Shown: one piece after another, positions 2,751-3,810 of the stretch
Layout of the letters: each line of letters opens with the position of its first letter
Position numbering within the stretch: the first letter of the stretch is position 1
From: Pseudomonadota bacterium
GTDB lineage: Bacteria > Pseudomonadota > Gammaproteobacteria > Burkholderiales > Burkholderiaceae_C
Assembly (NCBI GenBank): GCA_018241405.1
Contig: JAFEDY010000032.1
Span: forward strand, 5,725 to 69,724
Length of the DNA stretch: 64,000 bases
Reading direction: 5' to 3'
Translations under genes and position numbers: made by a program
The notes under the pieces: model-generated
Told to the model about the DNA's origin: nothing
Databases searched by the model: none
What the model saw: only the letters and a program-made list of their open reading frames with translations

Positions 2751-3758
2751 ATGCATCTGTCCAGCCCCACCCCCTTCCCCGCCAACCGCCCGCGCCGCCT
2801 GCGCCGCGACGCCTTCACCCGCAACCTGGTGCGCGAGAGCCACCTGTCGCCGCATGATTTCATCTACCCGGTGTTTGTGCACGAGGGCCAGCAACTGCGC
2901 GTGCCCGTGCCCTCCATGCCCGGCGTGGAGCGGCTGAGCCTGGATCTGCTGCTGCCGGTGGCAGAAGAGTGCGTGCAGCTCGGCATTCCCTACCTGGCGC
3001 TGTTCCCCTCGATCGCGGCGGACAAGAAGACGCCCGACGGCAAGGAGGCGCTGAACCCCGAGGGCCTGATCCCGCGCGTGGTGCGGGCGCTGAAGAAAGA
3101 ATTCCCCGGCCTGGGCGTGATGACCGACGTGGCGCTCGACCCCTACACCAGCCACGGCCAGGACGGCGTGCTCGACGACACGGGCTACATCCTGAACGAC
3201 GAGACGGTGGAGATCCTCGTCGGCCAGGCGCTCACCCATGCCCAGGCCGGCGTGGACATGGTCGCGCCCAGCGACATGATGGACGGGCGCATCGGCGCCA
3301 TCCGCGACGCGCTGGAGGCCCATGGCCTGATCCACACGCGCATCATGGCCTACAGCGCCAAGTACGCGAGTGCCTTCTACGGCCCGTTCCGCGACGCCGT
3401 GGGCTCGAGCGCCAACCTGGGCCGCAGCAACAAGGACGTGTACCAGATGGACCCGGCCAACACCGACGAGGCCCTGCGCGAGGTGGCGCTGGACCTGGCC
3501 GAGGGCGCGGACATGGTCATGGTCAAGCCCGGCATGCCGTACCTCGACGTGCTGCGCCGCGTGAAGGACGAGTTCAAGGTGCCGACGTTTGCCTACCAGG
3601 TGTCGGGCGAGTACGCCATGCTCAAGGCCGCCGCGCAGAACGGCTGGCTGGACCACGACAAGGTGATGCTGGAGGCGCTCCTGGCCTTCAAGCGTGCGGG
3701 GGCCGACGGCATCCTGACCTACTTTGCACTGGATGCCGCGCGGCTGCTTAAAAAATAA
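2751..3758 (+). CDS. hemB: porphobilinogen synthase (delta-aminolevulinate dehydratase)
   Basis: Internal start [29 protein letters not shown] of ORF 2667..3758. Contains canonical HemB motifs ([28 protein letters not shown]). Confidence 0.95.
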
Positions 3759-3810
3759 TAGCTGCTTGCGCTCATACATCAAGCGCTGGAGGCCGATTTG
3801 ACTGAAAACC
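3751..3810 (+). repeat. AAGCGCTT-core AT-rich repeat, copy A (hemB stop / CorA-family start spacer)
   Basis: aaaaataATAGCTGCTTGCGCTCATacatCAAGCGCTGGAGGCCgatttgactgaaaacc. Confidence 0.8.

Follow-up and report, generated by a model that had tools for sequence, protein, structure and literature searches.

The 64-kb stretch of contig JAFEDY010000032.1 analyzed here (the window), which comes from a bacterium of the Pseudomonadota and has a G+C content of 68.6%, contains short A/T-rich segments that resemble each other and that are found both between genes and inside them. This raises the question of what kind of element could be shared by spacers and coding sequences alike. An initial annotation had described the segments as 13 copies of a dispersed family, and all of them, labeled A to M in the following, were found where that annotation had placed them and could be aligned by MAFFT without gaps once put on one strand. 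In our view, there is about an even chance that the shared element represents a recognition signal specific to this lineage, about 65 bp long and read in a fixed register on double-stranded DNA, and that it is neither an inserted mobile element nor a structured RNA.

The copies could be separated from the rest of the window by profile searches. In leave-one-out searches with nhmmer, 11 of the 13 copies were regained at 20-37 bits (E-values of 1e-5 to 1e-10) and copies E and I were marginal, at 12.6 and 13.2 bits, compared with 3-6 bits for the top match outside the family. With a profile made mostly from other genomes, 11 window copies scored 27-46 bits and thus outscored 20 dinucleotide-shuffled windows (1.28 Mb), in which the maximum was 12.6 bits, a comparison that the initial annotation had proposed. 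Although copy I is weak by score, five genera share its pattern of A/T-rich synonymous codons. The profile search of the 64-kb window revealed no 14th copy, and the estimated density of roughly one copy per 5 kb holds (13 copies in 64 kb). The words reported as shared among copies were also correct, with ATAGCTGCTTGCGCT common to A and L, and AGCTGCCAGCGCTT common to C, F and K. Short words as such were ruled out as the signal since they are not over-represented relative to expectation: AGCGCT occurs 37 times in the window versus 33.2 ± 5.5 times in the shuffles, and AAGCGCTT occurs twice versus 0.8 times expected. Because AGCGCT alone is not enriched, the signal must be a long composite motif rather than a short word.

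The unit was defined from copies in many genomes. A strict pattern (AGCT-N4-GCGCT-N10-GCGYT-N3-GSC-NN-WTT) was scanned on one representative genome per species, with at least 119 matches, and iterated nhmmer searches over 1.0 Mb of sequence from about 120 pattern-matched loci gave 219 non-overlapping copies. Ascertainment bias was removed by dropping one pattern-matching copy per locus, which left 97 copies. The consensus of these, tGCTAy-nn-WWTt-n-RTAGCTgcyaGCGCTTg-nnnnn-yaaGCGCTrgaGGCc-n-WTTTgay-nnnn-AAA, resembles that of the 13 window copies, tGCTAT-N7-ATAGCTGCyAGCGCTTg-N5-cAAGCGCTrGAGGCC-aWTTTGAC..AAA. With abrupt changes in composition at positions 1 and 65, the 97 copies delimit a unit of about 65 nt that contains about 35 informative positions, which corrects the earlier estimate of 55-60 bp and adds a conserved left block, GCTAT. 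The cores had been described as octamers (AAGCGCTT), but the exact octamer is present in one copy only, and the core instead consists of two AGCGCT palindromes with a centre-to-centre distance of 15 bp and an RGCY tetramer 8 bp outside each of them. To the left there is an inverted pair, GCTAT..ATAGC, both flanks carry WWTTTGA-like direct repeats, and short A/T tracts lie beside the core. The register is fixed across genomes and indels are essentially absent.

The family extends beyond the window and is spread through the part of the Comamonadaceae that includes Acidovorax, Alicycliphilus, Diaphorobacter and Ottowia. Among the 119 strict-pattern matches listed, 118 are in the Comamonadaceae, and the genera include Paenacidovorax, Simplicispira, Giesbergeria, Extensimonas, Rhodoferax and some Comamonas in addition to these four; matches were also found in metagenome-assembled genomes labeled Burkholderiaceae. 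A match in Neomesorhizobium lacks profile support and is therefore considered a chance match. On complete chromosomes the matches are located at scattered coordinates. Compared with the one copy per 5 kb of the window, the density is about 10 times lower on a Diaphorobacter plasmid with many transposons and integrons, of which 150 kb contained only 3 copies, all beside chromosome-like genes.

The copies inside genes arose in place. PurK homologs position the source bacterium beside Oryzisolibacter and Alicycliphilus (89% identity), and the purK region was compared with its syntenic counterparts in these two genera and in Melaminivora, Acidovorax, Delftia and Comamonas sp. NoAH. Copies G, H, I, J and K are found at orthologous positions in Oryzisolibacter, Alicycliphilus and Acidovorax, and so is a copy on the ExbD side. 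The orthologous copies are partly decayed in Melaminivora, and no copy was detected in 21 kb each from Delftia and Comamonas sp. NoAH. The orthologs of copies G and H in Melaminivora (8461-9369 and 10692-10756) retain their left halves only, which looks like a decay of the motif, intermediate between the intact state in Acidovorax and the erased state in Delftia.

Codon alignments of PurK, a thioredoxin-TPR protein (Trx-TPR) and Sua5 are gapless across the element when motif-bearing genomes are compared with the motif-free Delftia and Comamonas, and PurK is gapless also in comparison with Burkholderia PurK structures. For the outer-membrane efflux protein (OEP) that contains copy B, the alignment to VceC/OprJ-like structures has only a one-residue gap. 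Thus, protein length is unchanged, to within one residue, in the four genes tested. In purK, the fraction of third codon positions with A/T is 0.61 inside the motif versus 0.07 outside it and 0.05 in the same codons of Delftia; the corresponding values are 0.65, 0.10 and 0.00 for Trx-TPR and 0.50, 0.08 and 0.04 for Sua5. The Sua5 protein is almost unchanged, and the motif is built there from single synonymous changes. In PurK, Delftia encodes GNLPQAQVEQALAAAQSVADG by G+C-rich codons where the Acidovorax segment carries the motif, and in Trx-TPR most residues differ from those in Delftia over about 19 codons. The intragenic sites are tolerant places in the proteins, such as inter-domain linkers and alanine-rich helices. 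Judging from these alignments, a directional force on individual nucleotides has made the intragenic copies and also maintains them.

One of the options initially listed was a relationship to the Rickettsia palindromic elements (RPEs), which are inserted into genes and lengthen the encoded protein. Like these, the element is a palindromic repeat in intact functional genes that is read in frame. Unlike these, it overlies homologous native residues and adds no length in the four genes tested, where no added residues were seen beyond the single one-residue gap in OEP. Since the alignments with motif-free homologs are gapless and the changes are at the nucleotide level, the intragenic copies are not insertions of the RPE type.

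The initial division into six copies at gene ends or in spacers and seven inside open reading frames was essentially right: copies B, G, H, I, K and L are inside verified genes and A, C, E, F, J and M are in spacers, while D is ambiguous. Across the relatives, about 84% of the pattern-ascertained copies are located outside genes according to crude gene calls based on the G+C content at third codon positions (GC3). The remaining 16% is a lower bound for the intragenic copies, since the caller misses genes such as the nucleotidyltransferase gene that contains copy L. The 113 classifiable intergenic copies are distributed over tandem (62), convergent (40) and divergent (11) spacers, compared with 317, 85 and 85 spacers of these types (p=2e-6), which means that convergent spacers are enriched (40/113 copies versus 17% of the spacers) and divergent spacers depleted. 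Many copies provide the stop codon or directly adjoin it, the median distance between the two being 2-7 nt. Copies in either direction relative to transcription are found in genes as well as in spacers. Forward copies are preferred in tandem spacers (42:20, p=0.007), and there is a modest strand bias, with a ratio of 132:83 on the G-rich strand.

A selfish origin of the spacer copies, similar to that of repetitive extragenic palindromic (REP) sequences, is a serious rival to a DNA signal. According to this explanation, to which we assign a fairly low probability, a repeat resembling REP sequences and the bacterial interspersed mosaic elements (BIMEs), or miniature inverted-repeat transposable elements (MITEs), was copied into spacers adjacent to stop codons and has since aged and begun to decay, and the copies in genes arose by rare patch-wise gene conversion from a spacer copy into a look-alike coding segment. 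The placement outside genes and next to stop codons, the preference for convergent spacers, the palindromic consensus and an excess of information typical of common ancestry would all follow, and the Trx-TPR segment differs from that in Delftia as expected from a patch replacement. The single synonymous changes in Sua5, however, point to point mutations rather than patch copying, and neutral old copies should have lost their A/T positions at 69% G+C, as the Delftia sites have, but these positions have been retained in five genera. The WWTTTGA-like flanks match no better within copies than between copies (3.60 versus 3.54 of 8 positions), and are therefore part of the motif rather than target-site duplications. 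Nor was any presence/absence polymorphism observed in the cross-genus comparison, where every copy in the purK/corA region is common to Oryzisolibacter, Alicycliphilus and Acidovorax; a MITE was rejected for these two reasons. The element is also rare on the transposon-filled plasmid. It resembles REP sequences and BIMEs in being a many-copy imperfect palindrome in short spacers by stop codons, with convergent and tandem spacers preferred over divergent ones. BIMEs are bound by IHF and gyrase, and by analogy the element could plausibly be bound by chromosomal proteins. The defining features of REP sequences are an imperfect palindrome of 20-40 bp and a conserved GTAG or CGTC head (PMC3733652). 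The element has neither head, is about twice as long and has asymmetric conserved flanks, and about half of the window copies (6/13) are inside genes, where those tested are not insertions. Of the REP-like option in the initial annotation, the placement at the 3′ ends of genes is thus real, whereas the head, the length and the restriction to extragenic locations were not found.

An RNA-level element, in which a hairpin formed by the transcript acts at mRNA 3′ ends as a terminator, a barrier to exonucleases or the target of an RNA-binding protein, would also explain why copies are located right after stop codons and in convergent spacers, and why forward copies are preferred in tandem spacers. 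The consensus can form a 10-bp stem, copies B, C and H fold well (z-scores of -2 to -4.6), and the reported pairing at 11 of 13 arm positions in copy C and the 8-bp stem in copy F are correct. We nevertheless consider a functional hairpin very improbable, since most window copies fold no better than shuffled sequences, with z-scores near 0, and since no covariation between the arms was detected in 84 copies. In these, 72.7% of the cells in the two proposed helices were paired, compared with 72.3 ± 0.6% after shuffling of partners (143/500 shuffles reached or exceeded the observed value); all pairs of high mutual information are neighboring positions, and the Watson-Crick frequency of every pair equals the product of the column frequencies. 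The palindrome is therefore a feature of the consensus, and the arms vary independently of each other. Mismatches of the G.T type outnumber those of the A.C type in the arms by 79:26 in copies transcribed forwards and by 54:7 in copies transcribed backwards, and as the excess is the same for either transcribed strand it does not reflect selection for pairing at the RNA level. Furthermore, the conserved intragenic copies occur in both orientations relative to the mRNA, and no Rfam family was matched at the gathering threshold in the whole window, while a scan of copies J and K by E-value gave only noise. The stem is not followed by a U-tract, and an intrinsic terminator was rejected because a scan of copies A-E flagged only the weak hairpin of E and because the T run of the unit begins some 8 nt past the stem. 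Upstream of copy M, gap is followed by a canonical intrinsic terminator of its own (AACGCGCCTTCGGGCGCGTTTTTT, 60440-60465), which is conserved in Pulveribacter, Comamonas faecalis and Hylemonella, so that these genomes use ordinary terminators distinct from the 65-bp element. A similar bidirectional hairpin is located at 31798-31830.

We therefore favor the hypothesis of a signal on double-stranded DNA, on account of the fixed register, the independent half-sites, the occurrence in both orientations and the in-place origin of the coding copies, as well as the conservation of positions against the G+C pressure, the erasure in motif-free lineages and the scarcity on mobile DNA. A long fixed-register motif that lies over coding sequence and is held across genera implies that something in the cell reads the DNA there. 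The reader would be a sequence-specific DNA-binding protein or complex that recognizes each half-site on its own, for instance a dimer of dimers bound to the twin palindromes, and the flanking A/T tracts could facilitate bending. A steady force on single nucleotides, which could stem either from purifying selection on binding or from motif-carrying DNA being transmitted preferentially, would then keep the motif at fixed chromosomal sites, and where no spacer is available the signal would be superimposed on coding DNA by synonymous and conservative substitutions. The biological role is most likely either the organization of the nucleoid and its topology or a mark for "self" or uptake, two alternatives between which our data do not separate.

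Several observations weigh against a DNA signal. The information of the motif, estimated from the position matrix, amounts to 45-50 bits, compared with about 13 bits needed for about 800 sites per genome, and such an excess would rather be expected of repeats with a common ancestor. The majority of high-scoring copies lie between genes, close against stop codons in a REP-like manner. The spacer copies may have arisen by insertion, and no motif-free orthologous spacer was found for copies L and M, as synteny downstream of gap differs between genomes. The modest orientation bias hints at some strand-specific aspect. The statistics on genomic context are admittedly approximate, because only 73% of the sequence was called as coding by the GC3-based gene caller.

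Among the options listed in the initial annotation, a protein-binding or DNA-uptake-type signal fits best. The special case of a DNA-uptake-type "self" signal is nevertheless distinctly unlikely in our view. Here a competence or uptake apparatus would favor motif-carrying DNA, so that mutations toward the motif would be preferentially re-imported and recombined and would spread through core genes and spacers by molecular drive, with no benefit at the individual site. The uptake signal sequences of the Pasteurellaceae (USS) and the DNA uptake sequences of the Neisseriaceae (DUS) arise by substitution, are stable at orthologous sites, favor coding positions that tolerate change and are common where gene ends converge. 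They have a core of 9-12 bp and occur about once per kb. Their evolution is reportedly covered by Bakkali et al. in PNAS in 2004, by Findlay and Redfield in GBE in 2009 and by Frye et al. in 2013. The element shares with them a clade-specific motif that is dispersed over the chromosome in both orientations, coding copies that were made by substitution rather than insertion and kept at orthologous positions in tolerant protein segments such as linkers, an enrichment at convergent 3′ ends, a scarcity on mobile DNA such as the plasmid, and a G+C core that, like that of the extended USS, is flanked by A/T tracts. It differs by its length of 65 bp with about 35 constrained positions, which is far above the size of the known cores, by its twin-palindrome core, and by a density of one per 5-10 kb that is 5-10 times lower. 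We found no report of competence or uptake specificity for these genera in the literature.

It could also be that the motif belongs to an undescribed genome-wide DNA-recognition system in one subclade of the Comamonadaceae, with a 65-bp signal that overrides codon usage in essential genes, although this seems rather unlikely to us. The motif might then be a very long uptake or "self" signal, or it might be recognized by a complex that has several subunits or is guided by a nucleic acid, and such a complex would account for an information content about three times that required of a simple binding site. In this scenario the reader would be missing from Delftia and some Comamonas, either through loss or because they never acquired it, and G+C-rich codons would have returned at their sites. 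Uptake sequences, Chi, KOPS (the FtsK-orienting polar sequences) and parS are 5-16 bp long. Genome-wide interspersed DNA signals are thus known as a kind, and we rate the in-place overlay on coding sequence as the unusual feature.

A few other identities were considered and left aside. A tRNA-derived element was suggested by a loose resemblance to the D and anticodon arms of tRNA-Ala, but ARAGORN finds nothing. A match to a sigma-70 promoter (9/12) was obtained only on the reverse strand of copy A, and the would-be -10 element lacks the conserved final T in most copies. Positions 15-23 are similar to the KorB operator TAGCnGCTA, but conservation of the right half is only 56-71%, and the flanking sequences are different. 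The consensus sequences of IHF, Lrp, FNR and sigma-54, compared by eye, gave no convincing match. In agreement with the initial annotation, no named repeat family in Rfam or the literature corresponds to the element. Our literature searches returned no paper with the motif words and nothing on uptake sequences in the Comamonadaceae, and the survey of REP sequences (PMC3733652) contains nothing for these genera.

The only annotated object found to contain the motif is an integron cassette, orfF/gcuF, of the dfrA12-orfF-aadA2 array (Pfam DUF1010, PF06231), which holds one near-consensus copy (42.9 bits). The copy is located at 2991-3039 of the pP11b plasmid region from E. coli (NZ_MZ513635.1), and over 1700 further plasmid records contain the cassette. 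The initial portion of the match to DUF1010 (FLASSACVASASSYRF) is the translated reverse strand of the element, and the rest runs into the attC site of the cassette. DUF1010 may therefore not be a real protein family. The element itself is not an attC site, since its position matrix lacks the RYYYAAC/GTTRRRY core sites, and the true attC of orfF (GTTCTAAC...GTTAGAC) is about 100 nt away. Unlike the dispersed family, orfF/gcuF represents a single captured copy on enterobacterial plasmids, which suggests that the cassette is a captured fragment of a chromosome from the Acidovorax clade.

The motif constraint competes with the constraints on proteins and codons, and, if true, a 65-bp signal at about a thousand sites per genome would represent a new scale for overlapping codes. 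The motif marks vertically inherited DNA in the Comamonadaceae and may help to trace the origin of the clinically widespread orfF/gcuF cassette. It also explains A/T-rich "anomalies" and spurious small open reading frames in annotations, such as DUF1010. Its hosts, which are known from wastewater, from plant disease and from biodegradation settings, are tractable bacteria.

The settings of the individual copies are as follows, with surrounding genes identified by Pfam and homology, and with bit scores from the profile made mostly from other genomes unless marked as leave-one-out. Among the copies inside genes, copy B (6312-6376, minus strand; 40.5 bits, leave-one-out 31.2) lies in the NodT/OEP gene at 5540-6985, between the two OEP repeats, where the reverse strand of the element is read. 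Copy G (27275-27339, minus; 36.2 bits) is in the Trx-TPR gene (27006-27914, minus), in the linker between TPR_19 and TPR_20, and is read on its forward strand. Copy H (29266-29330, minus; 40.0 bits) encodes a native helix in purK (28584-29762) and has orthologous copies in four other genera. Copy I (30408-30472, plus; leave-one-out 13.2 bits), the one that is weak by score, lies in an inter-domain linker of the Sua5/YrdC gene (29774-30772). Copy K (39376-39440, minus; 39.2 bits) is in an internal helix/loop region of the MTA/SAH nucleosidase gene (PNP_UDP_1), and copy L (56944-57008, plus; 27.6 bits) covers residues 63-84 of the minus-strand nucleotidyltransferase gene (56448-57197), whose Hylemonella ortholog (gene 2073-2798) has a copy at the same protein position.

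Among the spacer copies, copy A (3745-3809, plus; 46.0 bits, leave-one-out 33.4) lies between hemB (2667-3758) and a CorA-like gene (3798-4958), where it fills the spacer and contains the stop codon of hemB. Four copies are located in convergent spacers. Copy C (9891-9955, plus; 31.3 bits, leave-one-out 25.3) lies between an MFS gene (8323-9888) and a dienelactone hydrolase gene (9943-10701, minus), and covers the stop codon of the latter. Copy J (38999-39063, minus; 43.0 bits) follows corA (37890-38876), covers the stop codon of the MTA/SAH nucleosidase gene (39050-39817, minus) and, like copy K, has orthologous copies in Oryzisolibacter, Alicycliphilus and Acidovorax. Copy M (60517-60581, minus; 39.9 bits) is 106 nt past gap and 5 nt from the stop codon of an S30AE-like gene (60587-61021, minus). 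Copy F (26806-26870, minus; 34.1 bits, leave-one-out 31.4) covers the final 23 nt of gatB (25383-26828), which is convergent with the Trx-TPR gene. A marginal member of the family, copy E (15097-15161, minus; 16.8 bits, leave-one-out 12.6, E=0.005), is found in the divergent spacer between an MlaE-like gene and a GMC oxidoreductase gene that starts at 15157. The ambiguous copy D (12009-12073, minus; 34.8 bits, leave-one-out 24.2) is situated at the junction between the MlaD gene (12100-13077) and an ABC_trans_aux lipoprotein gene (11398-12078 or with a later start), and represents either the first codons or the 5′ leader of the latter, depending on its start codon, which is uncertain.

Some further features of the window were also observed. 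The 17.5-kb segment at 39500-56900 contains no copy of the element, has a G+C content of 64-68% compared with about 70%, and all genes called in it are on the minus strand. Within this segment, a 39-nt inverted repeat (44723-44761 and 44863-44901), with arms that are 82% complementary and 101 nt apart, is located in the A/T-rich spacer between the start of a minus-strand gene at about 44677 and a called gene at 44891-45649, and could be a paired operator or a structured leader. A 13-mer, TCGTTCGTTTTTA, occurs twice (34168-34180 and 41614-41626), each time in the 5′ leader of a minus-strand gene, one a peptidase S9-like gene that ends at 32580 and the other the gene of an AMP-binding enzyme (39880-41559), and may be a shared regulatory site. 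Finally, a near-perfect promoter of the sigma-70 type (TTGACA-17-GATAAT, 11/12) is located at 5004-5032 in an A/T-rich patch, upstream of a MarR gene (5041-5526) that heads an efflux cluster with OEP, the gene at 7013-8257 and the MFS gene.

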